Assembly: GCA_030698625.1 (NCBI GenBank)
Contig: JAUYMS010000030.1
Coordinates: 20,016-84,015, forward strand
Length of the DNA: 64,000 nucleotides
Source: Candidatus Omnitrophota bacterium
GTDB lineage: Bacteria > Omnitrophota > Omnitrophia > Omnitrophales > Aquincolibacteriaceae
Reading direction: 5' to 3'
A model generated the notes under the pieces. The model did no database searches and was not told where the DNA came from. It saw only the letters and a program-made list of their open reading frames with translations. Positions 16-54,603 of the stretch are shown here, piece by piece. Both the position numbers and the translations under genes were made by a program. The stretch's first letter is position 1; each line of letters opens with the position of its first letter.

Positions 16-3000
16 ATGATGCGTCAGGGAAAACTCGTGCGCGTAAGTTTTACCGATCCTGTTGTTATTCACGAGTTTGTGGACTATACGGATTCCGCAA
101 TTCAAGTGAATCGCAATTTTCAAGAGCGTGTCCGCAAGCTGGGTATTTCGATGCCGTCACATCCGGAGACGGACGAATACATTTACCGCAAGGACGTCGC
201 AACCATGATCCTGAGCGGGCTCAAAGGTGTGAACATCCCCGAAACCACGCTTGTAATGGCCGATCCGGACGAGCGGCTCGCGGAGCGTATCCGGAAAACA
301 AGAGCAGCCGATCCGGCGAATCTTGAAATCATAGAAGTCAGTCCGCGCGACTGGAGCATTCACGAAAAGGTCCGCCGCATCCTCGATGATTTTCTGAAGC
401 CGCCGGGCAGGGAAGAGGCGGTGCTGAAGCCGCACCACGGCAGCGGCGGTGTCGACGTAATGATCTTTGGACGGGAGAACCTGGAACTGGCGATCAATCA
501 CGCGCTGCGTCTTCTGCGATCGGGGAAGAACCTCATCCTTCAGGAAAGGATCCGCTCACCTTTGATACGGCATGAGGGTGTGCTTAAAGACTGGACCCTG
601 CGTGATTTTATTGCGCTTACGCCGGAGGAGGGGCGGACCGTCGTCAGCGACGTCCTGATCCGTTACGACCGGGCCGGCCGGCCCGTCAATATTACGCAAT
701 TCGCCGATGTGATGACGCGCGAAGACCTTGTTCTAAGCGAGATGGACGGCGACTTTGAGTGGAACAGAGAGAGGCTTGAGACCCTCAACCATGACCTGCG
801 AGAGACCGGCGAGCACATTTATGCACCTATAGCCCGGTTGATGAGGGAAGACGGTGTCCTCGGAGAAGACGAATATCCGACAGAATTCATGAGTGCCGAC
901 CTGATGTATGACGGCGGCAAGCTCTATGTCATTGAACTGAATAATGACAAGACGGGCGGGATGGGCTGGTTGAACGATCACCTGCGGCGCCGCGCCGAAG
1001 CCGGCGACAAAGATGCGGAGGCCCGAATCGGGGCCTCGGTGCGGGACTGGACCAATTATATGGTGCATCGTGCCGGTGTTTATAAGAGCACGATCCTCGG
1101 CATGGAGGCACAAACGGTTTCCGCCGCCGAGATTTATGCCGCTCTGCCCCGCGAACACCGCGACTATCTCGATATTATCGAGTTACTCGCAGAGGTGTCC
1201 GATTTCTTATATTTGCCGGTGAAGCCTAAACTTTCAGCGGTGCGCGAATGGGACGAAAAACGATTGAATCAGATGAAGCAAGCGCTCAGCCGCCTGATCG
1301 ACGGTAATTTCCGCAAGGATAACTTGAGGGAAATGCCCGCGAAGAGTCAGGCAAGACTGCTGGATTTGACGGCAAGGCTCGGCATAAAACTTGATCCTGC
1401 GGCTGTTCGAAGCGCGCTTGCACCGTCTCATGAAAGCGCGGCTGGATGGAGAGACGACAATACCGTCGAACTGAAAAGGCGCCGGGAACTCTTCGAGGAA
1501 ATTGAAGGGGCATTGCTGCGCTCGCCCTATGCGGAAAAACTGGCCGAGACTCTTCCCGGACGCAATATCGAAAAGACGACCGAGCAGATATTGGACGCCT
1601 TCCTCCGCACGCCGCGGCATCTGTTCGTCCCCGATCGTTTGCGCGAGCGTGCCTACGAGGACAAGGCTTTTCACGTCGGACTAGGCCAATCGATCTCACA
1701 GCCCAGCCTGATGGCGTTCGTTCTGGCTGTTTTAGACATTGATGAAAACAAGAAGGTCCTTGAGGTCGGCGCGGGGACCGGATGGTTTGCAGCATGGATG
1801 GGACGTCTCGCCAAAGAAGTCTATGCCGTCGAAAGAATTGAAGCCCTTACCGAACTCGCGCGCCAAAATATTGGAAATCTCGGCATCGAAAATGTGAGCG
1901 TTATCACCGGCGATGGACACAAGGGTCTGCCGGAAGAGGCGCCCTTCGACGCGATCGTGGTTTCGGCAAGTACGCCGAAAGTGCCCGACAACCTGCTCCG
2001 TCAGCTTTCGGCCGCCGGCGGCCGTATTGTGATTCCCTTAGAGAAAGGCAATGGACAGCAGGAGCTGACCCTGATTACGCGCTATGCTGACGAATACACA
2101 TACACACCGCTCCGGGAAGTGCGCTACGTGCCGCTGCTTGACGGAAACCGTGACGATTCTACCCGGTCCGAGCTGAGGGTTACGGTCGATCACATGGCCG
2201 CCAAGCTGCAGCGCGAGATTAGCAGCCGGGGCGGCCGTAACATTCGCGTGGAAATCTCACCTTCCCTCGGGGAGTGGCTTCGCCGCGATGCCGTTTTTCC
2301 GGCCGGCCTCTTCAACGGCTATGCGAGTTTTATCGAGGCCCTGAATTTTTCTCCCGACAACAAGGTGCGTATTATTTTTGCCAGCTGGAGTGACGAGCAT
2401 TTCAATGTCAGGATCGACGGCACATGGCGTTCCATTGAAGAAATGCGGGCTTTTGTCACGGATAAAAATATTGTGGTCCTTAACCTGAGGGAGGCTATGG
2501 CCGACCCCGACGGACTGCGTGATGACGCCTATCACGAGCTGGCCCACGTCAAAACATTCGAGCGTATTTATGACGTAGTGCAAACTGACGCGACCTATTA
2601 CGTGCTTGAGACCCTGGCGGATGCACTGCCTTATGAGGCGCTGTTGTCGAAAAACAAAACGGCCGCAAGAAAACACTTTAACCGTGTGATCCTGCCGCAA
2701 ATGCGCGGCTACACAGCAAAAGAATTACGCGGCGAAATGGCGGATCTCGCTACGGGCCGCTACCGGCACGCCGAGAAGCTCATCAAATTTCTGTTCTTCA
2801 CGAAGCGCTACGGGAAGGAGAAGGACTATGAGGCCTTCTTCGAACGCCTGCGGCAGCACTACCCTAAACGGGGAGTCGTGACCCGCTTGAAGACCGGTGC
2901 CGGCAAGATGGTCGACGAAATGAATAAGGCCCTCGACGACCTTGCGCAATTTGAGAAGACTGAAAAGACGATGGTCTACGACGCAATCGGCGCTTCCCGA

Positions 3001-6000
3001 AAAACCGCCGAGGCATTTTTAAAAGCCGTCAGCGGCCGCGGGCGTTCGGAACTGCGGGAGTCAACGCACGAGGATGCGTGGTTGACGCATCCGGCGGAAA
3101 CGGACTGGACGAAGCGTACTCCTTCGCAGATCGGTCTGTTGGTGCGTCTCATGCTGCAACGCGCCGAGATTAGCATAGACCGGTTAATGCAATTGCCTGC
3201 GGAAGAAGCCGAAAGGGTTTTCAGGGCCACGCCAATTGAGCCGCTCAGTAACGGCGAACCTTATACACTGGAGCCGCTGTATCGGGCCTATGACAATCTC
3301 CGCGAAGCCGAAGGCTCAACCCTCAGCACCTTACAGTTCCTGTTTTATAGAAACAGGATTCCGTTTAAGGGGCAGGAAAGCGCGGCACGGCGTCATATCC
3401 TGGATGAACACATCAGCGGCAATGAGCGGCAGTGGTTTTCAACGATTGCGCAGGAACTCGATTTCGAAGCATGGATGCATCTCTTCGACACCGACCAGGG
3501 CCAGGCCGCGCTTTTCCTGCTCCTGGCAAAACGCTACCCCGATTTTCCGAAGACCGCCTTGCTCGCCTTGATTAGTGAAAAGTTCATGGACTACGAAGAG
3601 CGCAACGGCATCGAGCCCTTTACGCGCGAGGTCTTGATGGGCGAGAGGACGGAAAAGGCCTTGGCAGCGTACTGGTCGGGCAATATTACGACACGACTCG
3701 AACAACAGGAAATCGAAGATTTGCGTGACACGATTGCCCGGCAAATCATTATTCGCATTCACAACTCCATTTGGGACAAGGCGCATAAGGTGAAGCGCGC
3801 CAGAGGAAAATCCGCTGCGCACAAAGCTGTCGAGATAGGCCGTCAGTGGTTTTCCGCGCGGCTAAATGACAGGGAGCATCCGGTGCCGCGTGATGTGCGC
3901 ACGATCTTTACTCGAATCAGAAAACATTACGACAAGCTGAGTCAGGTCAACTATCAGCGGCATGTGAAATTCCAGAACGGTAACGGGATGTCGCAGTTGA
4001 TGCTTCACCAGGTGGAAGGCATTTACTTTGCGCGCCATCAAAATGACGGCCGTGTCATCCTCGGTGACGAAATGGGCGTCGGTAAAACGGTGCAGTCCCT
4101 CATTGCCGCTGAGGATGCGGGTGCTGAGAGTGTGCTCATCGTGGCGCCGACCCGGTTACTGGCGAACTGGGAAAAAGAGATCAGGGACTGGTTGGGCAAG
4201 GACCAGAAAATTGCGGTTATTCGCGGGAGCGGGAAGGCGAAACTGCGTCAGATCGAAGAGGCCAAAGAGGCAGGTGCGCGGTTTATTTTGATCAATTACG
4301 AGGCCATGGCCAATGTCAAAGAGAGTAGGAATGGTGACGCCGTCGTTGATGCGCTTAATGACTGGGACTTTGATTTTCTGATTGCCGACGAAGTTCATTG
4401 GGTCAAGAACCCGAGCGCGGAGCGCACCAAGGGTTTCCGCAAGCTCAACAAGAAAAAGGCGAAGGCCATGTACCTCTCGGGAACTTCGGTGGTTAACGGT
4501 GTCGGCGATCTTTTTACGGCACTTAATGCGGTAGACCCCGAGCGTTTCCCCACGTTTAAGAAGTTCGTCGGAGAATTCACCGAAGACGGAAGGCGGGCGC
4601 GCGGAACCGTCTCGGACCCGCTGAAGTTTGCGCAGCTGAACGTCGAGCTCAACCAGAAATACTTCCTGCGCCGGACGCTCGAGCAGGTCATGGGGCATTT
4701 GCCGAAAAAACATGACCTCGAAGAGATTCATATCGGGCTGGATCCCGAGCAGATCGAAGTCATGGAGGATGTGGAGGAGCATAATGATCTCCTGCGCAAA
4801 GGGGAGCTCGAAATTGATGACGACGAAGAGCTGCCCGAAAACGGTAAAAGGGGACCCAGCCGCGGTTTCGGGCCCTATGAGATTCAAAAGCAGGTCTTGA
4901 TCGACCTCGAGCTTCTGAACGGCATGGATTACAAACATTCGGATCCGCCAAAGTACCGGGCCGCGCTTCAGAAAGTGCGTGAGGTCATCGCGAAGGGTGA
5001 CAGGATTTACATCACGAGCCGGTACCGCAAAGTGATTTATCGCCTGCGTGAGTTTCTCGCCGATGCCATCGGTGCAGATGCGATCAGCTATATCGTCAGC
5101 AGCGAACACGACGGCGTGGAGCAGGACGCGATTGTCCGCGAGTTCAACGAGAACCAAAAGAAGAAGGTCTTTCTTTCCACCTATGGAATCGGCGGTGAGG
5201 GATTGACTCTCAAAGCAAACCATGTGCTCTTTGTCGATCTGCCTTATACGCCCGCAAAGATGAATCAGGTTATCGGCCGCGTTTATCGCTATGGACAGGA
5301 GAAGGAAGTTTATGTCTACGCCCTCGTGGTTCCCGATACCGTTGATGAAGATATTTTGGATATCTTGAGCCGGAAGGAATCCCTTTTCGATCAGATTATT
5401 CGCGGCAAGCTCAATGTCGAAGATACGCGGAAGATGCTCAAGCACCTGGAAGAGCAGGAAGACAGACGTTCGGGGCGGAAGTCTCAGGCCCAGAAGGCGC
5501 GGGCGCGCATTGCCGACATCTACAATCTTCTCAACGAGGGTGAAAACGAACTCGCCCAACGGGAATGGGACGACTTCATGGAACTTTACGAAGAAGCCAT
5601 TGAAGACGTCGCGGCCACGGCGGCCACCCAAGCCCTTTACTCCTACATGCTGCAGGAACATGACGGCAATCGAATCGATCTCGGTTACAAGTCAGACGAT
5701 TATGAAAACCCGCGCTGGGGCTTTCTTGCCTCGGGGCCGTCGGTCGATCTCCGTGTCCTCAGACAAATGCAGGAGCACTTTTCGGAGCGGGGGGTTGCAG
5801 TAGAAGGAATTGATTACTACGAACTCGACTCGTCCGCCAAAGCCCGTGCCCTCGGACATGCCTGGCAGGTCACGAAATCATTCCCGAATCGGCCGAGCAG
5901 TCAGCTGACTTACGACCTCTATAACGATAACCTGCCTCAAAATCAGTTCGATTTTGTGAGCTCCTCAGAAATCGCCAGGCCGCGCCCGCGAATCAAAAAC

Positions 6001-9000
6001 AAGAAAGGCATCAGCATGAAACTTTGGGCGCTCTCCCAGATGGTGCAGTCCGCCACCGCAGGCGGCCTTGTTCTTATCTGGGATCATCACGGGGCTTTTT
6101 CGAAGAAGGCCATGGATTTTCTGTCGAACGAAGAGACCTTTGATCTGGAAATTATTAACACCGAGGGTTCGGCCATAAAGATTCCCGGTCTGGATGAGGC
6201 GACGCGCAACATGGTCGACGGGGTTACCTTTATTTTGGCGCGCAAGCGCAGTCACAAAACTTTCAGCGTTGAGGACCTGAAACGCATTCAGAAAAAATGG
6301 CCCGATGGTCTGCATATCGACCGGGATCAGCAGCTGGGTAGCAGGATTGCCAAGAGACGGCCGTTGAAAATGACGGACGAGGCACCGGATGACAAACCGC
6401 GCAGGGGAGTGCTCGATGTCATTACGCCCGGCGCTCCGGCGGGCCTCATCTCTTTGGTGCAGCGAGTGATCAAGAACAAAAAGCGCACCGGGGCCGACCA
6501 AAATATGGAGGAACGCCTCATCGAAGTGTTTGAAATTCTGCGCAGCGGTTCAAGAAAACCCGAAGACGTTCGGAAGCTTCATGAGCACCTTCGCAAGATT
6601 CTCGAACGCGGTCTGGAGCCCGACGGGATCAGGATCTTGCTCAGCCGCGTCAAGCGCTACAAGCGTTATCAGAATCGCAAGGACTTGAATGCGGTGATTG
6701 CCATGCTTGAAGGCACCCTCGCCAAGGCTGATGATGAGACCGAGCCCCGTGAAAAGGGCGAAAAGGAGACGGGAGGAAAAGGCGCCGGCGCAAGTAAACG
6801 CGGCCGTCGTCCGGGGAATGAACTGCCGAAAATTATTATCAATGACGGAGACGTGCTTCAAGCCCTGTCGTTACAGGGGATCATCTTCCGTAAGAGCTCC
6901 AAGTCGATTCGCACGGGTGTTCATGTGGAAGGCGCCACGGTATGGGTGGACCCTTACCTTATCGCTTCTCGCGTGCTCTCGCCGGAAGAACGGCAGTATA
7001 TCCTGCAGCTTCTCGTCTATATGCACCTCGAGCTGGTTCACCCCGACAATCCCGCGGCCGCGCTGCTCGTGGGTCTGCGGCATTTCCGCGAGCTCCTGGA
7101 CAAGGACGAGGTTCACGCTGCGCTCCAGAAAATGGAGCCGGATAAGACGAATATCTTTTACTTCTTTTTTGACAGCCATGATCTGCCGACCTGGCAGGAA
7201 GTGGAGCAAATCATCGCGGTGGACCCGTCAAGTGTGCCGCCTTACCGTGTGCAGGATATTCTTGGGCGCTTTACTCAATTTTTGCTGAAGCACCGTAGTT
7301 CCGAACACCTGCCGCCGGAATTGCCGGATGAGGGCGCGATTCCCGCGTTGCTCGTGAAGGCTGGTGAAATCGACGGAAAGCACGGCAAGAAAATAGCCGC
7401 CGCGCGTAAGACGCAACCCAAGAAGATGCGCTCGAAGCATCGTCAGGAAGAGAGTCTGCGCATCGTGGAAAGGGTTCTGGCGGCGCATCAGATTACCATT
7501 ACCGATTGGAATGACGATGCGGCGGCCGACGTCATTCGCGAGAGAATGCTCACCGGTCCGGTAAATCACGACAGCCTGTGGCGGTACTTTCACGAACCCC
7601 TGCTTCGCGTCAACCAAGACTGGCGTGCCAGTGAGGAAGCCAAGGAACGCGTGCAGACCGTCTATCGCGCGCTATTGCCGATGCAATTTAGAGCGGTTCT
7701 CAAAGCCGGCAGTTATCGATGGGATGAATCTCGGGAAAAGTTGAATGAGGCGTGGATGAACGAGAGGGATTACCTCACGCTCGGCGAGGAGATGAAACAG
7801 CAGAACGGCGACTATGTGGAAGATGCATTCTGGAAGCGGCGGGAACAGGATCTGGGAATTAAGAACGGGATGAACGAACGGCGCTGGGCCATGTCGGCTC
7901 GTGCAGGCATTCGCAAAGGGTTCAGTGAAGAGACCAACACCGAGATTATTCGGGGATTCCGGGCCTATTTGACCAATCCGCTTTCGCTCTTCGAAGAGAA
8001 TGAGGTGATCGCCCCGTATGCGGAGATCTCCGTGAAGGTCGCCGACATTCCGGGCGCGAAAGGTTCCCGCGTCAGCATCGCGTTTGAAGATCGGGAAGTT
8101 GCTTATCTCGGCACCGGTTACAGCGAAGACAATTTGATCGGGCGCTGGTATGTCGTCCAGAAATTCCCTTCGTCCGAAGTCGAGTATCAGGATAAAGATC
8201 TAAGGGCCATCGATGATATTCTTTTGGAGCTGAAATACCATTTTGAGAAAATAGATACACTGACGCGTTCTCAGCATCGCGAGTTTGTCCCGCATTACAG
8301 CTCACCCTTCTTTGCCGACTCGGCGCGCCTTATGTCGCAGTTGGACTCCAATGAACTCGGCCTGAACCGGGACCGCTTCGGCGGAGACGCCATGAAGATT
8401 GTTAATATCTTGATACCCATTCTCAAAGGCACGGGCACCTCGGACGAAGCGAAGACAGCGGCTCGGAGGTTTTTGACCGCGGTCGCCCCAAGCATGGCGG
8501 ACGAAATCGCCGAAGGCTCAATCGACAAGACGCTCCTTAGCAGAGCAATTCTCACGGAGAGGAAAATTCAGGTTGATTACGAAGACAAATACCGGGAGGG
8601 AGGTTTTTCGGACGAGGAACAGCAGCTGGAAACGGACAAAGTCAGGCACGCATCGATTATGGCGAGGCATGTGGCCAAACTCGCACTTACCGAACAGTCG
8701 CAACAAGCCCTTATCGCCGACTTTGTCGAGAAACACGCCGGCGATTTCCCCGAAGGACTAAAAGCAGAGGACTTACGGATAGACATTGTTTGGAACCAGA
8801 CACTTCGTGATGAAGGGATTCAGGAGCGCGCGGCGGTATTCGCCTCTCATTCTAATGTTCGCATCATACGCGATGACGAAGTCCTGGCGGTTCTCGGACT
8901 TAACTTTATGCCGGGCGACATGCAGGGCCGGTGGCATCTGAGCCAGAAGTTGTACAAGAACGGTAAGTTTGAATTCCCGAGAGGTAAGTTTATCCGCACG

Positions 9001-12000
9001 GGGCAGATGGATGCGGCAGAGCGAGAGGCGGGGATTGATCTCGGCCTATTGCGGCATCAGGGAGTGGTCATCGGACGGCCGAACTATAAATCACTCGTGC
9101 TGGTCGAGAATCCGGCTAAAGAGGGGCAGGTGTTTGTCCTGCGCATGACGACGCCCGGGAGTTTGTTCGGGACGGCCGCAGATCGTGAGCCCGTTACGAA
9201 GATTGACATCGCCCAAGATGCGGTTTACAGGATGCCGGACAGTGGAGTGGTGCTTCACGTCAAAGACGGCCTGATAACCGTTAAGGCCGAAGTCAAACCG
9301 GGCGCGTGGGAAAGTTACCACTGGATTTACCACGCCGTTTTTGACGCAGACGAGTGGCCGCAAATGGACTTCCCCGAATTTAGCGGCGGCGACTTTATTG
9401 TCGACGATGAGGTCCGCGACGTGGCCCTGCAGAAAGTCGAGCGATGGTCTCAGGATACGACTTATGCCGCCATTACGGCGGCGGATGTGGCGGACGGCCC
9501 GCTTTTCTTCCGGCCGAGCGCGGAGGCGGCCTACGGCCTTGCGGCCGTCAGGAACCCTTGGCTGGATGATTCAATTCTCATTTTTCAGACAGACATCGAC
9601 GGCCGCATGATCGCGCCCAGTCCCAAACCGATCCTCGGTGTGGATCTCGACGCGAATGAGACATGGCGGAGTCCTATTAGGGGTGTCGGACGTGATGGGA
9701 AGACACTGTACTTTTGGCTGCATCCGCAAACGGGTTCGATCTACTGGGCGCATTTTGAGATCAATAACGGGGCATCGTCGGCTGAACCGCCTTCAGATGG
9801 AGACGAGATCGTACACCCTGCTTATCCTTTCAAAGAGGGGCATTTGGAGCAGGCCGCGAATGCAAGGGCCGGTATTATTCAAATCCAAGATAAGGGAGGC
9901 CGGAGCGGTGTTCGTGACGTCTATGAAATTAGCCGCGATGTCTTGGCCCATGACGGGGTCATAGTCACTTACTATTCAACCATGAATCGCTATGCCGGTG
10001 TTAGTCACCTGCATGTCATCCAGAGCCGCGAAAATCCGAATCTGGTCTATATCTACGGTCTTGACGAAAATTTCCGTTATGTGCCTCGCGACGAGCGTGA
10101 CCACTTGCATGTTCTGGATCTCAGAAACCCCGATTCGCGTACCACCGATGCTGATCGCAGGGGAAACATCACATTCAAGGTCATTAATGCGGGTAATGCC
10201 CTGAAAATTATCCGTTCTCACAGTGATATGGAAGGCCAGAGAGCGCGCGGCGAAGAGGTTTATGCCGCCAAGTTCGTGCCGGATGATGAAGGCGACGACG
10301 ATTGGAAAACGATTCAGAGCATACTAAATGCAGCGGCCGTGATAAACGGCAATGCACAGTTCCCGCATTATGATTCGCCTGTCTTCGGGGAATTTGTAAG
10401 GAAAATCCTGCACGAACTGAGTCCCGAGGAACTGGGCAGCCGTGATGGAAGCACGCACCGCAGATTCCACGAGCGCGGTAAAAACCTGATCGAGCCGTTG
10501 CTCGTGATGGCGGAGAGCACGACGGCGCCGGCTAGGGTGAGAGACACGGCGAAAAAAATGCTCATCGCGTTTGCGCCCGAGATGCGCCGTCAGATTCTTG
10601 CGGGTAATATCGACCGCCAGCAGCTCATGCGTGAGCTCATCGGCGAAAAAACAGAATATGTCGGACTCGAAAGAAATCTACAGGCCGAAGGATCCACAAG
10701 GGAAAAGCAGGCCCTCGAAAACATGCGGTTACCCAATGCGAGGTTCGCCTCGATTCTCGCGCGATACAATTCCGCCCTTAAGCTCGACGCAAAGGCCCGC
10801 GACTTACTCCTCGACGACTTTATGGAAAAACACGGACAAGGTCTTGACCGAGAAACTCTGAGGGTCGAGGTCGCACAGGAGCAGGAAATAGAAGATTACA
10901 CATCCGGCGGCGGCTTTCTCGACCATGTAAGCGATTTGGTTTCACGCATCCGCATCATTGACGGCGAGGAGCCGCTCGCCGAACTTGGTGTCATGTACAG
11001 CGAAGACGATATGCAGGGTGAGTGGCGCTTGCTGAAGGATGCCGGCCGGGAAAGTGTCCCGACTGGCAGCTACTTATTTCCCGAAGGCGAATTCAAAAAA
11101 AATAAGTTGATGCCCAAGAATGCGACGGAGATCAATCCCGAGGACTGGAATGACGGCGCGATTGTCTTCCAACAGTTGGGAAGCGCCTATGCTCCCTCGC
11201 CGATTGCTCTCGTGCCTTCCTTCGTAGATCCGAATAAGATTCTCGTCCTTCCCGTTACGAGCCATTTCAGGACATTTAAAGAAACAGCACTCAGAGAACC
11301 GCTCGGCGTGCTGGACCTGAGCAACCCTTCGGAGGACTACCTTAAGGTTTCGTTCTGGCCCGATCGCCAGGACCTTCAGGGGAGGGAAACCCTGCTGCGC
11401 GTCATTGACGGCGGTAAGGTGGAAGTCGTGCAGTTAAACGGCGAAGCGGTCCCCACGATGTCCCGTGCGGCCTTCGGCGCGGATGATTGGACGCAGGTGC
11501 CCATGGCCGAAGTGGTGGGCGGCACGTTCAAACGCGGTCCAAAATTGCAGTCGAAGGACCCCAGGAAATTTGCTTATTTGGCCCGTAAGAAGTTTGAGAA
11601 CGGGCGGTCCCTGATGATTCGTGAGCCGGAGGATACCTATCTCGTGGCAGGTCAGAATCCTTGGGATGCAAAGTCGGTCATCGTTTTCCGTACGGATGCG
11701 GAAGGCCACATGCTCGACGAAATGGACGGCCGGCCGATTCTGGCCTTTTCTACGATCAAGGCAGGCGTTCACCAAGTCGGAGACATCCATTTTCAGTTTG
11801 ATGACTTCGTGGTTGATGGTCTCATGGCAATGCGGAAGGGCGAAGGCGAAGACGAAGAAACAGCGGCCTATGAAGCGACTTTTGTTCCCGGCCCGGAACC
11901 GTATCCTTTCTTAGGCGGAAATTTCGCACCCAAAGCAGGTCAAGAACTCGAAGGGATTGAAATTACCGGCGGCGGCATCACGGAAGAATATGAGATCAGC

Positions 12001-15000
12001 GGCGAGGTGCTCGGCGGGGACGGCGCCGTGGTTACCTATTACAGCAGCCACTCGAGTTACCGCGGCGTTTCTCACCTGCATTTCATCCGCAGCCGCAAGA
12101 ATCCGGACTGGGTTTATGCCTATGGCCTGGACGGCAATTTTCGCTACAGCCAGTGGCGGAACACTCCGCTCATAGCAATCAATCTGAACAAGCGAATTAG
12201 CTCATACGCTCGCGGAGAGCATATGGGCAACATCGAAGTCAAACCCAACTCTTCGGCAGACGGTATTGTGGTCCATCGCCGTAACCAGATGAACGTTGAG
12301 ACCGCTAAAGATGAAAACGGAGAGGTTCAGATTCTGGACGTGAGTTTCGACAGGCGGCGCGCGGAAGTCGTTTTCGCCGCCGAATTTCATCCTGATGGCG
12401 CCGAGTCCGAAGGGCGTCTCAACACGTTCAAAGCGCGCTTCATGGCGGATGAAGGATGGTTCGCGTATCCTTACGTGCACGGCCGCCTCAAAAAAACAAG
12501 TGTCGATGCCCAAGACGGTATTCAGTTCAGCCGGCGGAATGGGAGTTCCACGAGCAAGATTTCGCGTGAAGCACTGGCCGGTAAGGGTGTTCTTATCGCG
12601 CAATATAAATATACAAAGGCCGAATCCGAAGAGCTTGTTTACTATCATCTGATGTTAGACCCCGAGAATTCGAAGAGGCTTTATATCTATGAACTGGACG
12701 GAGACGGGCGGGCCGTGCCGGCCGACCCGGAGCCGCTTGCGATACTGAACCTGTCGGACTCGCAGTTTGAATGGAGTAATAAGCACAGTAACTTGTCGGT
12801 AGGAGCAAATTACGGCGAGCCTGGGTTTCTCCTTAGTGTTAATCACAACAAGGGACCCTTCGGTGAAGTGTACCGCGCCGAATTCATCGCCGATCCGCCG
12901 GCAGAAAGAAGTGTAAGCGAAACTTATCCGGCTTACCCGTTTGCCGAAGGTGCGTTTAGGACTCTTGCGACCGGCGAAGGCATGACCCGGGGGCATAGCG
13001 ATGTCTTCCAGACTGCAGAGATTGACCGAAGCGTTCTTGCCGCCGAGGGTGTGGTCGCGACCCACTACGTGCCATACGGACCTCACCGCGGAGTTTCACA
13101 TCTTCATATTTTCCAGGACCGCAGCAACCCCGATCTCATCTATGTGTATGGCTTGGATGAAAAATTCCATTATGGCCAGTGGAGGTCAGGCCCGCTGGCA
13201 GTTCTTAACCTGGCCGATCCCGCCCTGAATGTGGGCGAGGGCGTGCGCCGCGGGAATGTCTGGGTGCAGAAGTCAGCTGACAAGAACAAGGTTCTGATCA
13301 CCCATAAAAATCCGCGCTACCCTAGGCGGCCCGACCGCGATGAAGGAATCTACCGGGTTCAATATGTCTCGCGGGAGCAGGCGAAGTATCCCTATGCCGG
13401 AGGACGTCTCGTAAGACCTGCCGGAAATGAGGCGACTGCCGGAATCACCTTCGGCCTTAAAGCGGCCAAAGGCTCGGCGGCCTATGAATTGAGTCCGGAG
13501 TCGCTGAGCGGCACGGGTGTGTTGGTGGCAGAATACGTGCGCAGCCCGAGCTGGTCACAGGAAATTTTCCATCATCATCTATTCCTGGATCCTCTTGATC
13601 CTCGAAAGCTTCTTCTCTATCGCCTCGACGAAGAGGGCCGCGCGACCGGTGAGCATCAAACGCCAGTCACGGTCCTGGACCTGGATGAAGAGTTCCGCTG
13701 GTCGACCGGTACCTTTATCCTCATGAATGATAAGAACGGAAAGGGATTGTCTCTAACCCGTCGCAAGGGTCCGTTCGATAAGGTTCACCGCGCTCGCTTT
13801 GTGCCGGACGGCGGAGAGGCAGTACCGGACAAGGCGCTTGAGAGATCAAATCTCGTTCGCAACGGTGTCTTCAAGCGCCTAACGCAATTGAGGAGATTTA
13901 AGTTCGGGGAATTTACGGATCATGCGGCATCGTCGAAGTTCCGATGGACGGCCAGCGTAGGCCGTCCTCAATTGGATGCCGGGCAGGCCCTGTTGGTACT
14001 TGAGAGCAAACTGGGGTCGGAACGAACATCTCTGGTTGCGGTGAGGCACTCGTCCCGGGTAGGGGTGGTTCAGATTTACCGGCTTGGGAATGACGATCGC
14101 ATTGTTGATGCCCGGGCCCAATTGGTAACCGAACTGAATGCCGAAGAGTCCGAGAGCTTGGGGCTGTTCACCTTTACAGTTAAATCGAACGGCGCGGTTG
14201 AGGTCAGCAAGGCCGACGGACGCGTCGTTGCCTACTCCGCAGAATTTATTCCGGGCGAATCGGCTGCGAGCGGCGATGACCGCCTGCTTGAAGAGGCCCT
14301 CACTTATGTCGGAGGCCACTACCCCGATTACGACTACCTTTTCGGCGTGTTCTCTTACGACGATCTCGAATGGCCCTCGGCTTTTAAGCCCTTCTTCGAA
14401 ATCCTTAAGAACCCTGATGCCTCTGCCCAAGCCAAAGAATTCGTGCGGCGTATCTTTTTAGCGCGCGCGCCTTCGCTCTATGAGGCGATTGTGAGCGGCG
14501 AAATTTTGGGGATGGATGAAGACGAATTACTCAAGATATTTAAGCAGGAAGAAGCGCTCTGGGATTTTCAGCAGAAATTCGACGGAAAGGGCGGAGAGAT
14601 TCATACGGCTTATTACGCGATTGAGGAGGCGCAAAAGGAGAAAGGGCTTGAAGGCGTTGAGATTTCGGCGGTGCGCATGGCGGGATTGCTCGCCGATAGC
14701 GAGCCGCTTGTCCCGCGCGGGCCTTCGGCCGGATTCAGCACGGCCACCCAAGCGGCCCTTAAGAACGACTTCTTCGATCGCTACGGGGCCCTGTTTGACG
14801 GGTTAGAACGCAAAGACCTCTATATCGATTATGAATTTGACGTCCCGGCTTACGAGAATCTTAAAATCGCACGCATCATCATGCGGCGCGGAATAGACGG
14901 TCCCGAACTGGCGCATCTCGGCACGGGGCGTACCTTCGACAATGTCCAAGGGGTATGGCATCTGAATCATGAGCTCGTTAAGGCGTCGGTGCCCGGGGAG

Positions 15001-18000
15001 TATATTTTCTTCCGGTCCGAAGAACCCCTTGAGGGCGAGCGTGCACCGGACGGCCGGGACCTGATCCTGCCGCTTGCGGCATTCAGACAAACGGTGGGCG
15101 AGGAAGAGAAAATTACCGGCGGTGTCTTTATCATCGGAGACCGGTTCGGCTCAATTCCTCACGGTGATGCCATTGCCGTGCAACACCCGGATCACCCGCA
15201 TCTGATTTTTATTTTCAATAATCTCGGCAGAGAAGGGAACATTATCGACGAGTCTTACCGTCAGCCTCAGCCGGCAGCGATCCTTGATCTACTCGACCCG
15301 CAACCGGTCGAGGTCGAAGGGACCCGATACAGCGTGACTCCCGACGGCCGCATCCGGATCGGGAATGCCAATCTGGATAAAAGAGGCTCCGCATCAGTTT
15401 TTGGCCTGGTCGGGGGCTCACTCGTGTGGTCATCGAAGCCCGGGCAGAATGAGGCGACAGGGGCATCCGACGATATAGAAGTGCCTCTGGATCCGCAGAC
15501 GACAGCGCTTAGAGAATTGCTCGGAGGCGATCTGCTTCACAAGATATTGCGGCCGGATTACAAAGGAGCGGACATCCGCCAAGCCGTCAGGAAACTCAAA
15601 AAGGATAAATTCTGGTGGCCGTTCGACCAAAACGCTTCGCCGTATGCACGCCTTGTCACCGAACGCATTTATGCCGCGACGGTTCCCGCGCTCGCGGACC
15701 GCGTTCTGTCAGGTGATCTTGATAAAGAGACTTACAATGCGGAACTTGACAGGGATCTCGGCGGCAAAGACTTCTCCAGGCTTCGCAGGATGTCGATGCG
15801 GGACAATGACGGCAAGGCGCGGGAATTGAGCCGTCCGGATAAGGAATGGCTGATCGCAGATTTCTTTAGCAGACACGCTGATGCTTTGGACGAGGACCTC
15901 GGGCCCGAAGCCCTTGATCTCCGGATTAAAGAGACCGATAGCGAAACAGATTTCCTTATTGTGAGACGGTATAAGGTGCAGGGTGAAACGGAAGCCCTGG
16001 CGCGGCTCGGCACCGGGTTCGAATTCGGCAACTTGCAGGGCCGGTGGTATATAGAAGGCGGCGCCCTTCGGGGAGCCTTCAAGACAGGGAAGCACTTTGG
16101 TTCCATCGGTGACGGTGCGACAACCGTAACCCTAGAGCCCTCGGTCCTGGATACCGGCGGCGTCTACCTTGACAGTGCCCATCATGATGTCAGCCGGGGT
16201 TTTGTATTGCCCGTTGTCTTGAGGCGCGACATAAACAGGCCCACACTGGTGCACGCCTACATGCTGAGTCCGCAGGGAAGTTATGGCGGTATCAAGTCGG
16301 GTTGGGAATATTCGCTGGCGGATATCGATCTCACAAAAACGGGCTCGGAATACAGGGTCGAAGAAACTCGCATCACCGTTCTTGCCGGCGGGCGGCTCCA
16401 GATTTCACTCACCGAAAAGAGCAATCTCAGTCACGGTGTCTATGCCGCGGAATTTTCTCCGGTGCGTCGTGAATCAAACGCACCGGATTTGGCTGTCGTC
16501 CACGATATTATTGCCGCCTACGGGCTTCATCGCTACCTCGGATCCGATCAATTCGGTTCCTGGGCGCGGCCGCATATATTGCATGGCGGGCTTGATGCGA
16601 AACGTTGGCATGACAGTTTCAAGCCGCTGCTCGGGATCGTCAATAACGCCGAAGCCGACCCCGAAGCCCGCAGGCTGGCGCAAAGAGTCCTGGTGGCCCT
16701 CACGCCGCGCCTGCGTGATCGCATTTATCCCGATGGGGCTGCAGAACAGGCAGCGCTGAATGTTCCGGCGGCGACAGAGCTAACCAAGGACGATATCTTC
16801 AATTGGGCTCAGGGCAAAGCCGATCCTGCAGTTGGAGCGACCCTGGTCATGCCCGTTACTTATTATGACGAAAAGAAGGGCGGGGCCGACGTCATTCCGC
16901 GGGCCCGCGTCGAGGTAAAATCGGCCGGTACGGGCAAGAGTTTCGCCGTCCCCATCGACGATCTCAGATTGAAACGGAAAGAATTGAAGAATGCCACTTT
17001 AGCCGTGATCGAAGACGCGAACCTCGGCAAGGTGCTCGCCATTTTTGCGCCGGACGATTACGAGTCCTGGCGATTCGGAAATTACACGGTCACCCCTCTG
17101 GCAGTTTTTCCGGTGACGGCAAAACACAACGGTTTCCGGCAGCTGGCCGTACCTTTTCTCGTGGATATCGATAAGCTCAGCCGCGGGGAACTCGAGGAAG
17201 TGCGCGTGCCCGGTCATCCCTGGAGCTATATTAAGACTGCGGCCCGTGTGGAACCGCCTTCCGGCAAGATGGAGTCAACCACGGCGAGAATCATCTTGAA
17301 GTCGACCGCATTTGGGGTCCTTGTCCAGATGGGATTTACGCCGACCGCCGCGGACCTCGAAAAGATCGATCTCGAGAGCGGTGAGCGAAACATGGACGTT
17401 TATGTGGTGATCAGGCAGCATCCCAACCGCGGGCCCATGGTACAAGTCTTTCGTTTGAAGGATTATGATCCCGCGAAGCCCGCTGAATACGGCGAGCCGA
17501 TCGTGACCTATGCGTACGTCGACGAGAAATGGACTCAGATTATCCCCGCAGTGAATGACATCATTGATGCCGCCTATGGCCGTAAGGACTTGGTCGAAAC
17601 CGCGGATGCCTTCGAACAAAAGGTCGCGATCAATCAGGATGGTCGCAGGGCCTCGATTACCATCACGACCGGAACGCACGGTAAGAACAAAAAAGCATTC
17701 TCCTTTACCTTCTCAAAAGAGGAAATAGATGAATTTAAGCTGGCAGAGAATCCGGCAATCGTCCGCCTCAAGGTCGATCGCGATTACGGCCCCTATATCG
17801 CCGTCTCGGCCAGGGTGAACGGGGAAGAGCGTTTGATCGGTAATAGTGTCGAGGTCAAGAATGAGGCGCAGAAAACACGTCGCGTCGATTTTGACAAGGA
17901 GGCCTTCGCCGACTTCCTTAATAGTGCAAACAATATTCACGGTGAACCCATCGCGCCGCGAATTTATACCCATGCCCATGAATTAACGGAACAAAACAGG

Positions 18001-21000
18001 TACATGGTGGATGTCCTGAACCGCGCCCAGGTCCGCAGTCTGGACGAACATGGGATTAAGCGGCCGGTCTTTATTCCCAGGCCGGATGCGAAGTACGGAT
18101 GGGTCTTTGAGACGCATGATGTGGATACGTACAACAAAGACCCCGGCAAGAAACCGGAAGTCGTTTTAGCACGGCGGCCGGGCCATACAACATTGATGAA
18201 AGTTAACAGAGTGAGTGCTCCTGCTGAGCCCGAAGCGAAGCGGGATACAGAGGGCTCCATTCTCGATGAAGCCACGCTTCTTTCAGAGCTCATGAGCGAA
18301 TCCCACCTGCAGATGTTTCACGAGCAGGACGCCATGTATTGGAACCGGAATTATGGTGAAGCCGAAGACATCGCGCGCTGGGCAGAACGTGCCGGCGAAT
18401 GGAAAGACCGGTGGATTCACAGTGACCCGGTCCGCGAGGCGTCGCTGCAGGCCAGTATCTACGGCAAGCTCAAATTAAGTTCGGATAGCCAGAAACTTTT
18501 GATTCGGGATTTTCTTGATAAACACGGGGATCAATTTGCAATCCCGCTCGGTGCGCAGGACCTCTGGATCCGCATCTTTGCCTTCGACAAGCATTATCCC
18601 GATGGGGAGGTTCGTCAGGCCTCCCGTATTGCCGTGGCGCATAAGGACACCGGCCGAATCCTGGCGACGCTCGGGAATTTCCACGAACCCGGCGACCTGC
18701 AGGGGTATTGGCGGCTTGAGCCGTGGAGCAACCCGCCGGTGCCCGCGGAGCGATTTAAACAGCACGGCTTCAAGGAACGCGACTATGTGCGAGACGCCGA
18801 CGGCACAGTCAGAATGCCGCACATCAATGTCCCGGCCTTACTCGCGACAAGGGTTGCCAATGAACAGCCGGGCGTCACCAGCGGTTGGATGCTGACGCGG
18901 CGTCAGAGGGATTCAAAACACGTTCTCATCGCGAAGGGAAGGAGCCATGAGCCCGGCGAGATATTAGGTGTGCTCGATCTCACCCGGCCCGGTTCGTCGG
19001 TGACGCTGGATCATGCGACCTTTACCGTGGAGTCCAATGAAAAAGTCGCCGTCGTGCAGGCGCCTGATCCCGCCCTTGCTGCCATAGCCACGGTGCTCGG
19101 AAGTGTCAAGGTCAAGGGCTCGTCGACGCTTTCCGAAGGCTCTGCTACCGTGCGTTATGTCACGGACGAATACGGCGCCCGGCGGTTTCGACACGCATTC
19201 TATGACCAGCGCGGCAGCGCAACGGATCAAAGTGACTGGGACCGGATCCATGAACCCTTAGTCCGCGTTCTTGAGGATCCGGCTGCGTCCGAAACGGCCA
19301 AACGCGTTGTCCTGCGAATCTACCTTGCGCTTGTGCCGGATCTCCGGGAAATGATGGAGTCCGGAACGATCGATCGCGCGCGCTTGCGCGAGGAACTCCG
19401 CAATGAGCACAAGATCTGGGAGCATATCGAAGCGAAAATCGAACGCGGTCACGCCAAAGCCCGAGGGGAACATAATTATCCGAAGGATTTTGGGCCGGGA
19501 TTCAAAGCAAAACGAATCCCCGCAGGCGTTTCGATCCGGCGTCTGACGCCCGTTAAGTGGGCGGCGATGCTCGCGAACGAATATAAAATCGAAGAGCTTG
19601 AAACGGGCGACGAGGAGCTCCTCAAGAAAGATTTCCTGACTCGGCACGGCACGGATTTTGGAGATGTTCTCGACAGCGGCGATACCAAGATTCGCATGAG
19701 ATTTTCAGGGGTGGAAGTTGTGTTGGCAGAGGCAGAGGAGACCGTCATTGCAACATTGGGAGACGGCTATCATCCGAAGGAACTTCGGGGTACCTGGTCT
19801 ATTGACAATGAATTTAAGTTTGATGCCAGTCTGCATCAACTAAAGAAGATCCTCTATAAGGGGGCCATGGTGCGCATGGAAGACGAGATCTGGAATCGCG
19901 AGATTTTCGGCGAGATCGTTCGCGGGGATCTCTACGTCTTAGCCGGCAAGGCGAAATGGGAGACGGTGCATGAGCCCATGCTGGAAATACTCCGGGACGA
20001 AAAGGCATCGGCCGAAACCAGGCGTGTCATCAAATTGATTTATCTGGCGATCACACCTTCTCTTCACGCCGAGATCCTCGGCGGGGAACTGTGGAATCAT
20101 AAAGCGGCGATTCAAAATGAACTGGAGAAGGAAGTAGAACGGGCGGGGCAGGAGTATCGGGCAGCGAAGGCGGAGCAGGAGTTCCCCGACATGACCCTAA
20201 CGCGGCAGGCTTCGGCCTATGCCAGAGTCGGCCAGAATAGAATTTTTGTGGGCGCGGATGAAGAAGCGTTGATCGATGACTTCTGGCAGCAGCATAGCAG
20301 TGACCTCCCTCCCTGGTTTGAGAGGGAAAGGCTGAAGCTGATTGCGACACAAATCCATATAGATAAGATTCATGAGCTCATGCCTCATGGCGAGAGGCTT
20401 TATGTCACGATTGCTCATACCGCCGATGACGGTAAGCAGACAACCCTCGCACGGTTGGGCACGAGTTTTGCGCCCAATAATCTGGTGGGGCAGTGGAGCA
20501 TCTTGTGGGAAAACATTGTAATGCCGGCGCTCTCGCGCGAAGCTCTTAATTTTGAGGACTACAAACAACTCGGTATGGGCAGCGACCGCGCAGAGATTAT
20601 TGTTGATGCACAAACGCTGCTGCAAAGTGGTGGTTTGTTTATAGACCGGTCTTCTCAAAGCGAAAGATACCGCAATCTCGCCTTAATGCCTGGGCCTTCG
20701 AGTAAAAACGTACTGCTTGTTATCGCCGTTGACGATAAAGCGCCCGATGGAGATCAGCTGCCATTAGGCACGCTGCGTCTCGACCAGCCGGGCTTTAGCC
20801 GGGTCGAGAGGAATGAGACGCAGTTCGAAGTGCTCGAAAACGGTCAAGTCGTCGTCAGACCCGGGGTCTTTGATGGTTCCATCCCCGAGGGCTATATCCG
20901 GCACAATCCGGTCTATCAATTGGCCTCTAAAAAACGCTCCGAATTACGTTCGTCGATACAGGTCGGTAATCCCCTCTATCCCGGAAAACTCGAGATGTTC

Positions 21001-27627: not shown

Positions 27628-27642
27628 ACGAAGAGGACGCGC

Positions 27643-27788
27643 GAGGTGAAAACGAGTCTGCCCGAAACGCTCCGGATTTCTTGGCCTATCCTGCCCATCA
27701 AAGTCTTGTCGAAAACCGGCGACTTTGATACTCGCTGATACGGCCCAAGAAATCCTCCGCATGTTTCTGGCAGCCTCTTTCTCACCTC
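27643..27788 (+). repeat. MITE-like palindromic repeat element, copy A (~146 bp), with 14 bp terminal inverted repeats gaggtgaaaacgag / ctctttctcacctc
   Basis: It lies in the intergenic gap just 3' of the giant gene. It is about 90% identical to the reverse complement of 61993..62138. It has extensive internal complementarity (ggatttcttggcc / ggcccaagaaatcc and atcaaagtc / gactttgat), which predicts a long hairpin. Confidence 0.75.
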
Positions 27789-27979
27789 GAACACAAGCTG
27801 GTGACCAGACACCCAAAAGAGAGCCAGGTTAACTCACGTTAGCCTGTCCTTTTTTGTTTCTACCTCAGTGAGTGTAGGGTCGTTATGGTGGGAGCCCGAA
27901 GTATGCATCCTCTATGGCAATGCGCTGTCCTCCCGAATATAATAAAGCCCACGTGACCACCCCGCGGGAGGTCTTAGTT

Positions 27980-30076: not shown

Positions 30077-30538
30077 ATGCGCATTTACTCTCTTCTACTC
30101 CTACTGTTTGGCTATATCGTGTGCGCAACGCCGGCGGCATATGCGCAGGAGGAGCTTACTGTCGAGGAGGTCACTGACGGCGAAAGTTTGGTCCTCAGCG
30201 ACGGGCGCCGCGTGCGTCTCATCGGTATCCGCACCCCGGTAAGCGGCAGCGATGTGACAGACCTGGATTATGGCCGCCGCGCCCAAGAGTACCTCGTCTC
30301 CCTCGTTATAGATCGCACGGTCCGCACAGAGATCGATCTCATGAATGATATTACTCACCATCATGATTCAGAGGGGCGGTTTCTGGCCTATGTTTATACC
30401 GGTGATGTCCTCGTCAATGAAGAGATGGTTCGCGAGGGTTATGCCGAGGCATTCGCAAAGTTCCGATTTCGCTACAGGGATCGCTTCCAGGCCCTTGAGC
30501 AGACGGCAAGGGACCAAGGCGAGGGTTTATGGGCATAG
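30077..30538 (+). CDS. Secreted SNase-like thermonuclease (micrococcal nuclease homolog)
   Basis: It has a signal peptide (MRIYSLLLLLFGYIVCATPAAYA) and an SNase-like core (VTDGESLVLSDGRRVRLIGIRTP...EEMVREGYAEA...ARDQGEGLWA). Confidence 0.7.
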   Translation: MRIYSLLLLLFGYIVCATPAAYAQEELTVEEVTDGESLVLSDGRRVRLIGIRTPVSGSDVTDLDYGRRAQEYLVSLVIDRTVRTEIDLMNDITHHHDSEGRFLAYVYTGDVLVNEEMVREGYAEAFAKFRFRYRDRFQALEQTARDQGEGLWA

Positions 30539-52878: not shown

Positions 52879-52884
52879 TCTCAA

Positions 52885-53829: not shown

Positions 53830-53838
53830 GAAACGATA

Positions 53839-54597: not shown

Positions 54598-54603
54598 CGG
54601 GGA

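Follow-up and report, generated by a model that had tools for sequence, protein, structure and literature searches.

Homologues of protein isoaspartyl methyltransferases, ATP-grasp ligases, or the two side by side are found in the graspimiditide, lassimiditide and imiditide systems, where both enzymes act on peptide carboxyl groups. The RiPP-associated methyltransferase homologues (PAMT) are defined by an extra C-terminal substrate-recognition domain that carries a WxxxGxP motif (Zhu & Link 2026, PMC13001092). Also closely related are the giant proteins of Omnitrophota, of the Archaeovorin and Dockerin types (West-Roberts et al. 2023) and of the 'multi-enzyme metabolic cluster' class (Nielsen & Lui 2026); a multi-enzyme giant-protein class has been described (10.64898/2026.06.07.730766; 10.1101/2023.11.21.568195). 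Numerous transmembrane (TM) regions and a divergent SecA-DEAD domain are reported for the largest Omnitrophota giants (10.1101/2023.11.21.568195), and neither survey mentions ATP-grasp, isoaspartyl methyltransferase or SNF2 domains (10.1101/2023.11.21.568195; 10.64898/2026.06.07.730766).

We analysed a stretch of 64,000 nucleotides from a Candidatus Omnitrophota contig, hereafter the window, in which the same two enzyme superfamilies adjoin within a single plus-strand reading frame. A first-pass annotation had read them as an N-terminal pair of the kind that forms aspartimides and graspetides. We propose that they are probably two independent enzyme modules in a giant multi-enzyme protein of Omnitrophota, at least 9,208 residues long, whose 5' end lies outside the window.

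A giant reading frame open at the window edge

The giant-protein ORF runs uninterrupted from nt 1 to nt 27627 of the plus strand, the strand of all the domains and motifs assigned to it below, and comprises at least 9,208 codons (9,203 when counted from the ATG at nt 16, whose codon is taken here as aa 1). It is open at the left edge of the window. No stop codon occurs in nt 1-15, and the corresponding residues (ARGGI) align to a conserved xSG[LI] that in the homologues precedes a conserved Met/Phe. Moreover, in every homologue that carries the ATP-grasp domain internally, some 75 aa directly upstream of it form a conserved subdomain (VNIAI.G...L.LLEEGSR...F.L). Judging from these alignments, the ATG at nt 16 is therefore almost certainly an internal Met codon and the gene extends to the left, so that the two domains cannot be placed at the head of the giant protein, as had been supposed. 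The pre-ATP-grasp N-subdomain of the window protein would be expected in this upstream part, outside the window.

The host phylum is indicated by a CpaF-like ATPase encoded in the window, the best matches of which (56-73% identity) come almost all from Candidatus Omnitrophota or from unlabelled uncultured-bacterium MAGs, whereas matches in other phyla do not exceed 45% identity. Two members of the ATP-grasp family, P0003 and P0020, are likewise NCBI proteins of Omnitrophota MAGs. The domains detected in the giant protein are ATP-grasp, Pcm, SNF2 and TPR, and the genes that flank its ORF are ordinary chromosomal genes in a housekeeping context. It is thus a multi-domain, multi-enzyme protein of the Omnitrophota type, which shares with the described giants the phylum and the chromosomal housekeeping context, as well as an organization in which unrelated enzyme domains are tiled along one very long ORF with TPR/HEAT scaffolding. 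Its ORF is cut by the window edge, and its visible length falls below the set of at least 30,000 aa termed 'giant' and near the set of at least 10 kAA. In contrast with the giants of West-Roberts et al. 2023, a simple hydrophobicity scan of the window protein gave no TM-like segment and no SecA-DEAD domain was detected in it (Pfam finds SNF2 but no SecA), nor were C39 or S8 domains; a secretion signal was not found either. Scans of genome and metagenome contigs with the window protein returned no close relative of the giant protein.

Family membership of the two enzymes

The methyltransferase is the more readily classified of the two. It occupies nt 1516-2151 (aa ~501-712), and its Pfam PCMT core (nt 1576-2145, aa 521-710) scores 176.4 bits against a cut-off of 20.3 (E=8.6e-52), which is far beyond chance. 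The motifs GQSISQP, VLEVGAGTGW, VYAVERI, GDG..G...APFDAI (as GDGHKG..APFDAI), AAGGRIVIP and VRYVPL are all present, and Pcm chains of the PDB match the domain at 2e-38 to 8e-36, with full-length alignment to the sequences of 1JG1 (P. furiosus), 4L7V (V. cholerae) and 3LBF (E. coli), which carry the same motifs. The domain also passes the NCBIfam equivalogs: NF001453 requires 188 bits and TIGR00080 159.05, and its scores are 208.6 and 177.8, respectively. On the RiPP models, it remains far below the cut-offs: TIGR04188 demands 380 bits and gives 98.1, over profile positions 89-219 only, and TIGR04364 demands 320 and gives 104.4. Control proteins of the RiPP type show the reverse pattern, staying below 188 bits on NF001453 and scoring 181-341 with TIGR04188 or 490 with TIGR04364. 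Within aa 1-1400 there is no WxxxGxP motif, and aa 481-1100 lack even WxxxG. The extra C-terminal domain of the RiPP-type enzymes is also absent, as an RSELR pentapeptide follows 5 aa past the Pcm core and precedes an unrelated module. Every protein among the best 120 relatives has 199-345 aa, and nearly all are single-domain Pcm, with 42-50% identity; a search with aa 401-1010 returned PCMT matches only, of which the top one, P0093, is a tandem-PCMT fragment unrelated to the flanks. By its conserved substrate- and SAM-binding motifs (those of the family being pre-I ..SQP.., GxGxG, GDG and post-III VRFVPL), the domain is thus a canonical protein-L-isoaspartate(D-aspartate) O-methyltransferase (Pcm/PIMT, EC 2.1.1.77) and not a generic class I methyltransferase. 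It differs from the canonical proteins in lying inside a polypeptide longer than 9,200 aa.

The ATP-grasp domain is much more divergent. Its central and C-terminal subdomains (nt 1-1122, aa 1-369) were recognized by homologue alignment, a family profile and an AF2 model. Used alone, the window sequence is nearly silent: E=0.24 for Pfam ATP-grasp_3, E=0.018 (PDB, phmmer) and E=0.0012 (NCBIfam) for DcsG, and no match to Pfam ATPgrasp_YheCD at E<=0.1, the gathering threshold of 26.8 bits not being reached. A word-indexed search of 5.8 billion proteins with it returned nothing, and HMMER, run in full over 1.84 billion representatives, yielded 90 relatives, the best at 1e-42 with 34% identity. The commonest Pfam matches among 33 aligned family members are ATPgrasp_YheCD (PF14398; 26 members, best 2e-14, and 3.9e-19 on full-length homologues) and ATPgrasp_ST (PF14397; 21 members), followed by ATP-grasp_3 (17), TTL (13) and RimK (5). 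Their NCBIfam matches are DcsG (13), rimK_fam (12), MptN (11) and glutathione synthetase (9). As 26 of the 33 relatives match YheCD and the window sequence itself does not, the window domain belongs to YheCD by transitive homology only. The family profile matches D-Ala-D-Ala ligase (Ddl) at 1.6e-8 in three collinear motif blocks, and also GshAB, DcsG, cyanophycin synthetase, LysX, RimK and TTLL7.

Conservation of the key residues is consistent with this assignment. The family alignment identifies K59 (nt 190-192), K138 (nt 427-429), R216, N225, D295 (nt 898-900), E307 (nt 934-936) and N309 (nt 940-942). Of the 16 positions that are invariant or nearly so in the family, 15 are kept in the window, the exception being N194T. 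K138 and D295/E307/N309, which are among those kept, align to the Ddl blocks KP..G and D...E.N. These alignments show that the first domain has the ATP-grasp fold, as first proposed, with the predicted ATP-binding Lys and Mg2+-binding Asp/Glu/Asn triad in place, and that it is apparently catalytically intact. However, this is a divergent member with no Pfam match of its own, with N194T and with F in place of G in the conserved 'IS.GA' motif, and therefore altered or lost activity is possible. The AF2 model of the domain ends in a long C-terminal helix, H340-369; a single-sequence AF2 model of the window domain was useless (pLDDT 35).

We place the domain, from its sequence matches, in an unnamed branch near the YheC/D-like, RimK, LysX, MptN, GshB and TTL families. 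The comparison with ATP-grasp subfamilies that the first-pass annotation had proposed puts it nearest to the amino-acid ligases YheC/D, RimK, LysX, GshB and TTL, with graspetide ligases ranking lower; its closest similarity is thus not with the MdnC-like enzymes or, more broadly, with the MdnB/C-PsnB type of graspetide ligases. Identity to the solved structures of RimK, LysX-ArgX, MptN, GshB and DcsG ligases and of eukaryotic TTL/TTLL is 11-19%, and none of the curated cut-offs is reached. The family differs from these enzymes by its own signature (DWNLRVF, VNIS.GA, DFMG.D and PY[VI]IEVN..SGGMWDL) and by being an internal module of giant proteins. YheC/D proteins are small and stand-alone, and we know of no biochemical characterization of YheC/D itself. 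As a module, the family turns up repeatedly in the multi-enzyme giants of Omnitrophota.

What would the two enzymes do? RimK/TTL and Pcm families act on protein carboxyl groups, and the suggestion that both domains have a protein- or peptide-carboxyl-modifying chemistry remains a reasonable one. The ATP-grasp domain, with aa 1-369 and the upstream subdomain, would be an amidoligase in which ATP and Mg2+, bound by K138 and by D295/E307/N309, would activate a substrate carboxylate as an acyl-phosphate. This carboxylate would most likely be of the Glu/Asp type, carried by the tail of a peptide or protein or by a small metabolite, and the amino group of an amino acid would then attack the acyl-phosphate to give an amide. 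The Pcm domain (aa ~501-712) would methylate L-isoaspartyl (or D-aspartyl) residues in a SAM-dependent manner, and the methyl ester would drive succinimide formation and repair back to Asp.

Module borders and the RSELR pentapeptide

Between the two enzymes runs a linker of some 130 aa (nt 1123-1515, aa 370-500) that has no Pfam or NCBIfam match, and its very first residue is modelled by AF2 as the end of the ATP-grasp C-terminal helix. The pentapeptide RSELR occurs in six exact copies, the first of which (nt 2164-2178, aa 717-721) closes the unit, 5 aa past the end of the Pcm domain. Between this copy and the second (nt 3043-3057, aa 1010-1014) lies a 288-aa module (nt 2179-3042) with no family match and, as a motif only, an HExxH sequence, YHELAH (aa 839-844, nt 2530-2547). 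An SNF2-family helicase module follows at nt 4006-5295 (SNF2-rel_dom aa 1331-1592, Helicase_C aa 1652-1760). PDB sequence searches with the rest of the giant protein recovered SNF2 and TPR only. The third copy (nt 20935-20949, aa 6974) is just past the end of the internal repeat region, the fourth is at nt 21634-21648 (aa 7207), and the fifth (nt 24748-24762, aa 8245) and sixth (nt 27037-27051, aa 9008) are upstream and downstream of the TPR block, respectively.

Six exact copies compare with 0.025 expected in the window protein. Two other giant proteins contain 14 and 7 copies (about 0.02 expected in each), which brings the total to 27 in three giant proteins. The copies sit at domain borders and interrupt no detected domain; in P0020, they leave intact all five domains that Pfam detects, and the family ATP-grasp envelope as well. 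A repeat at the DNA level was rejected as the explanation, since the codons differ synonymously between copies; the flanks are not conserved. A literature search for the pentapeptide found software names only. Its position makes RSELR a candidate for a module delimiter or for a processing site. Giant-protein surveys leave open whether such proteins act as one chain or as cut pieces (10.1101/2023.11.21.568195; 10.64898/2026.06.07.730766), and one of the two gives the cleavage points as unknown. It is conceivable, though on balance doubtful, that RSELR serves, by its specific sequence, for processing or docking and splits Omnitrophota giants into functional pieces, in which case the ATP-grasp-Pcm part would be released with its end at aa 716 and the giant ORF would be a bacterial polyprotein. 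RSELR appears to us the more useful lead from this locus, as a conserved pentapeptide at module borders offers a concrete site for testing by proteomics.

Independent modules or a functional pair

The relatives of the ATP-grasp domain bear on the relation between the two enzymes. PCMT occurs in none of the 90 homologous proteins and in none of the regions within +-10 kb of 14 metagenome ATP-grasp loci, that is, in 0 of 104 family members. The 22 large homologues carry unrelated enzymes and repeats instead (5'-nucleotidase, epimerase, dTMP kinase, APH, LOG-like, transglutaminase, LMW phosphatase, TPR and HEAT). The ATP-grasp and Pcm domains therefore look like independent units strung along a multi-enzyme chain rather than a crosslinking pair of the RiPP style. 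In the latter, as in graspimiditides (fuscimiditide) or lassimiditides, the ATP-grasp enzyme would crosslink side chains as macrolactones or lactams and the PIMT homologue would turn Asp into aspartimide, on repeat modules that belong to the giant protein, or on a target peptide. Such an analogy, drawn from the juxtaposition of the two superfamilies, is now very improbable. Besides the missing pairing, the methyltransferase scores as a canonical Pcm and fails TIGR04188 and TIGR04364, the reverse of true RiPP-type enzymes; it lacks the extra C-terminal WxxxGxP domain; and the ATP-grasp domain is closer to RimK, LysX, GshB, DcsG and TTL. The idea that the protein's own repeats serve as a RiPP-like substrate fares no better, as the internal repeat region consists of divergent, domain-sized units of about 140 aa and not of short core-peptide repeats. 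No precursor peptide was found; the domains are embedded in a giant ORF, and the DNA to their left lies beyond the window edge. In addition, the RiPP-type homologues recovered with an organism name are actinobacterial (Streptomyces, Kitasatospora), whereas the host here is an Omnitrophota bacterium. Two known enzyme superfamilies that adjoin in a giant multi-enzyme protein are a fairly ordinary finding and give no pointer to a RiPP-like pathway; the inventory of Omnitrophota giant proteins nevertheless gains two domain types, a YheC/D-RimK-TTL-like amidoligase family and a canonical isoaspartyl repair methyltransferase.

A coupling unique to the lineage of the window protein is possible, because a single RSELR-delimited unit holds both enzymes and each of them acts on protein carboxyl groups. 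The RSELR-delimited segment, from the upstream edge to aa 716, would then be released, or would act, as a bifunctional protein whose two activities cooperate on one protein substrate, for example in the upkeep of this very long and slowly replaced giant protein or in modifying a host or prey protein at its acidic tails. N[GS] and DG dipeptides are typical isoAsp-prone sites of Asn/Asp damage, and the giant protein contains 39 and 62 of them, respectively. The location of both enzymes between consecutive module borders and the sparing of all detected P0020 domains by RSELR are also consistent with such a unit. However, the pairing is unique to the window protein among everything searched, it shows no co-evolution signal, and processing at RSELR is itself putative; we consider this reading rather unlikely. 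Far less likely still is a 'polyvalent' effector-like giant protein whose modules (ATP-grasp, Pcm-like methyltransferase, HExxH module and SNF2 helicase, plus Fic in the homologue P0020) act inside a host or prey cell or in anti-phage defence. Indeed, matches to the defence helicases ZorD (9.7e-46), DpdE and DrmD were found for the SNF2 module and one to PADLOC 'mad2' (4e-30) for the methyltransferase, P0020 has a Fic domain, and Omnitrophota are reported to be host-dependent or predatory (10.1101/2023.11.21.568195). Yet the PADLOC matches are generic and at the domain level, the partner genes of those systems were not seen, the giant protein has no detected secretion signal or TM segment, and its neighbours are ordinary chromosomal genes. 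We thus favour two independent enzyme modules.

Three minus-strand ORFs opposite the two domains (nt 157-501, 733-1158 and 1234-1795) were rejected as genes and read as shadow ORFs of the 27.6-kb plus-strand frame, which has strong protein homology. Apart from the giant protein and the CpaF-like ATPase, the window also encodes a ROK kinase.

Canonical Pcm domain in a giant protein

A single frame on the forward strand (nt 16-27627 as listed, 9,203 aa) fills the first 27.6 kb of the window. When the whole protein was scanned with Pfam, a PCMT domain (aa 521-710, E=8.6e-52), an SNF2-family helicase module (4006-5295, aa 1331-1760) and, close to the C-terminus, a TPR block were found, and sequence searches gave no further domain. 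The methyltransferase domain, METHYLTRANSFERASE, aligns over its full length with the solved Pcm proteins 1JG1 (2e-38), 4L7V (1.4e-37) and 3LBF (8e-36), and keeps the canonical motifs GQSISQP, VLEVGAGTGW, GDG..G..APFDAI, GGRIVIP and VRYVPL. It scores above both canonical Pcm equivalog cut-offs of NCBIfam (NF001453, 208.6 versus 188; TIGR00080, 177.8 versus 159), and falls below those of the models for ATP-grasp-maturase methyltransferases (TIGR04188, 98 of 380 bits, with the Rossmann core alone matched) and FxLD methyltransferases (TIGR04364, 104 of 320 bits). As controls, we used RiPP-type homologues from our own search, mostly actinobacterial proteins of 336-392 aa together with one FxLD-type protein of 696 aa. 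These reached 181-341 bits with TIGR04188, or 490 with TIGR04364, and remained under the Pcm cut-off, whereas canonical Pcm proteins scored the way the window's domain does. The WxxxGxP motif of RiPP-associated homologues is absent here, and the Pcm core is followed by 5 residues, the pentapeptide RSELR and an unrelated module. The best 120 database relatives are all 199-345 aa long (42-50% identity), and nearly all are single-domain Pcm proteins. Taken together, the scores, the motifs, the missing WxxxGxP and the single-domain relatives mark this, at the level of sequence, as a canonical Pcm domain that forms part of a giant protein. At 1474-2052 (+ strand, aa 487-679), the Pcm domain matches positions 204-400 of the 492-position PADLOC profile 'mad2', a MADS defence-system component (4e-30); this suggests that mad2 contains a PCMT-like domain and is no evidence for a defence role here. 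The top PADLOC matches of the SNF2 module are the defence helicases (ZorD, 9.7e-46; DpdE; DrmD), a likeness that is probably generic to SNF2 proteins, since none of the partner genes of these systems was seen.

ATP-grasp domain and its partners

Taken alone, the window's ATP-grasp sequence is nearly silent (Pfam ATP-grasp_3, E=0.24; DcsG in the PDB, E=0.018; NCBIfam DcsG, 0.0012), and a word-indexed protein search with it returned no match. When 1.84 billion representative sequences were scanned in full with HMMER, 90 relatives were recovered (best 1e-42, 34% identity), many of them embedded in proteins of 2,000-8,000 aa. In an alignment of 33 family sequences, K59, K138, G145, R216, D295 and E307 are invariant and P75, F126, R178, D192, N194, R196, N225, A230, N309 and G314 nearly so; of these 16 positions, 15 are retained in the window, the sole change being N194T. 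Pfam matches among the aligned members are to ATPgrasp_YheCD (26/33), ATPgrasp_ST (21/33), ATP-grasp_3 (17/33), TTL (13/33) and RimK (5/33), and NCBIfam matches of family members are to DcsG, rimK_fam, MptN and glutathione synthetase. The family profile itself matched D-Ala-D-Ala ligase (1.6e-8) through three blocks in collinear order, corresponding to the K..IL..G..P start, the loop KP..G and the Mg2+ site D...E.N, as well as GshAB, DcsG, cyanophycin synthetase, LysX, RimK, TTLL7 and TTL. The motif-based ATP-grasp call of the first-pass annotation was correct, and by these profiles the domain belongs with amino-acid-adding ligases, not with macrocyclases.

The pairing itself is not conserved. 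No PCMT domain occurs in any of the 90 homologous proteins, nor in the host ORF and ±10 kb of 14 metagenome loci carrying the family's ATP-grasp, and no collection searched contained a close relative of the giant protein. Twenty-two large homologues combine TPR or HEAT repeats with an unrelated mix of enzymes (5'-nucleotidase, epimerase, dTMP kinase, APH, LOG-like, transglutaminase, LMW phosphatase). On this distribution we consider the ATP-grasp/Pcm association idiosyncratic and not a conserved module. There is no sign that the two domains work successively on one substrate. They could still be coupled in a lineage-specific manner within one RSELR-delimited unit, but we regard this as unlikely. 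Most likely, the ATP-grasp would activate a carboxylate as an acyl-phosphate and join it to the amine of an amino acid, by analogy with RimK, LysX, MptN, GshB and TTL, and Pcm would methylate isoaspartyl residues for repair. Of the earlier proposal, the presence of both domains stands; their reading as a RiPP-style pair is not supported, given the Pcm scores, the lack of WxxxGxP, the ligase affinity and the unconserved pairing.

Their placement at the head of the protein is not confirmed either. Nucleotides 1-15 contain no stop codon, leaving the frame open as far as the left edge of the window. In homologues with an internal ATP-grasp domain, about 75 aa are conserved ahead of 'MF.EG..V.V.F..P...HY', with the pattern VNIAI.G...L.LLEEGSR...F.L...G+....SGL, an alternating strand-helix-strand signature that looks like a pre-ATP-grasp subdomain. 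At the close of this region, xSG[LI] pairs in the alignment with ARGGI, encoded by the first five codons of the window. The open frame, this alignment and the conserved subdomain argue that the gene very probably extends leftward beyond the window, the ATG at nt 16 being an internal methionine and the protein exceeding 9,208 aa.

RSELR pentapeptide

The exact pentapeptide RSELR occurs six times in the giant protein, against 0.025 expected: at 2164-2178 (aa 717), 3043-3057 (aa 1010), 20935-20949 (aa 6974), 21634-21648 (aa 7207), 24748-24762 (aa 8245) and 27037-27051 (aa 9008), all on the + strand. Its codons vary synonymously between copies, its flanks are unconserved, and it is found in no other real ORF of the window. 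Two other giant proteins with the same ATP-grasp family, P0020 and P0082, carry 14 copies and 7 copies (plus 3 KSELR), respectively, with about 0.02 expected in each of the three proteins; in all three the copies fall at apparent borders between modules. Seven other large homologues checked have none. No detected domain is cut by RSELR in the window's protein or in P0020, where DUF218, His_Phos_1, ATP-grasp, HEAT and Fic (Pfam) each lie inside one inter-site segment, HEAT and Fic sharing the same one. This is consistent with, and does not prove, a role as module delimiter, because the detected domains cover little of these proteins. RSELR is also a candidate processing or recognition site. The pentapeptide is unmentioned in two surveys of Omnitrophota giant proteins (10.1101/2023.11.21.568195; 10.64898/2026.06.07.730766), one of which calls the cleavage points of such proteins unknown, and we consider it one lead worth following. 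Some 2 kb upstream of the P0082 giant gene (locus L095, giant gene 10001-27844) and among housekeeping genes, there is a gene for a trypsin-family serine protease (7150-7893, - strand); no counterpart was identified in the window.

Between the first two sites, a 288-aa module (2179-3042, +) without family match carries a zincin-like HExxH (YHELAH, 2533-2547); a further HExxH motif, RHEQGH, occurs at aa 8040 (nt 24133-24147).

Protein class, host and neighbouring genes

Self-comparison of the giant protein showed divergent internal repeats at aa ~2500-6900 (window ~7510-20720, +), a region without family match. It includes a duplication of ~700 aa (aa 2759-3423 versus 3450-4127) and a family of at least five units of ~140 aa with the motif GVSHLH...Y.YGLD. 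Both surveys describe multi-enzyme giant proteins in Omnitrophota, and the window protein is a further instance of this kind; ATP-grasp, isoaspartyl methyltransferase and SNF2 are mentioned in neither survey. Unlike the largest Omnitrophota giants, the window protein has no SecA-like domain by Pfam and no TM-like segments by a simple hydrophobicity scan. Omnitrophota MAGs in NCBI are the source of two ATP-grasp family members, among them a 7,989-aa 'Fic family protein'. The Omnitrophota placement is based on the CpaF-like ATPase, whose best matches (56-73% identity) come almost all from Candidatus Omnitrophota or unlabelled MAGs; with a TadG-like protein, it is encoded among Tad/Flp-type pilus genes at 50900-56070.

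Downstream of the giant gene, two staphylococcal-nuclease homologue genes (30077-30538 and 32434-33120, +) sit amid several ORFs without Pfam match. A gene at 42122-42985 (-) encodes a transglutaminase-like cysteine-protease-fold protein (DUF553/BTLCP), and one of the large proteins homologous to the ATP-grasp likewise carries a transglutaminase core domain.
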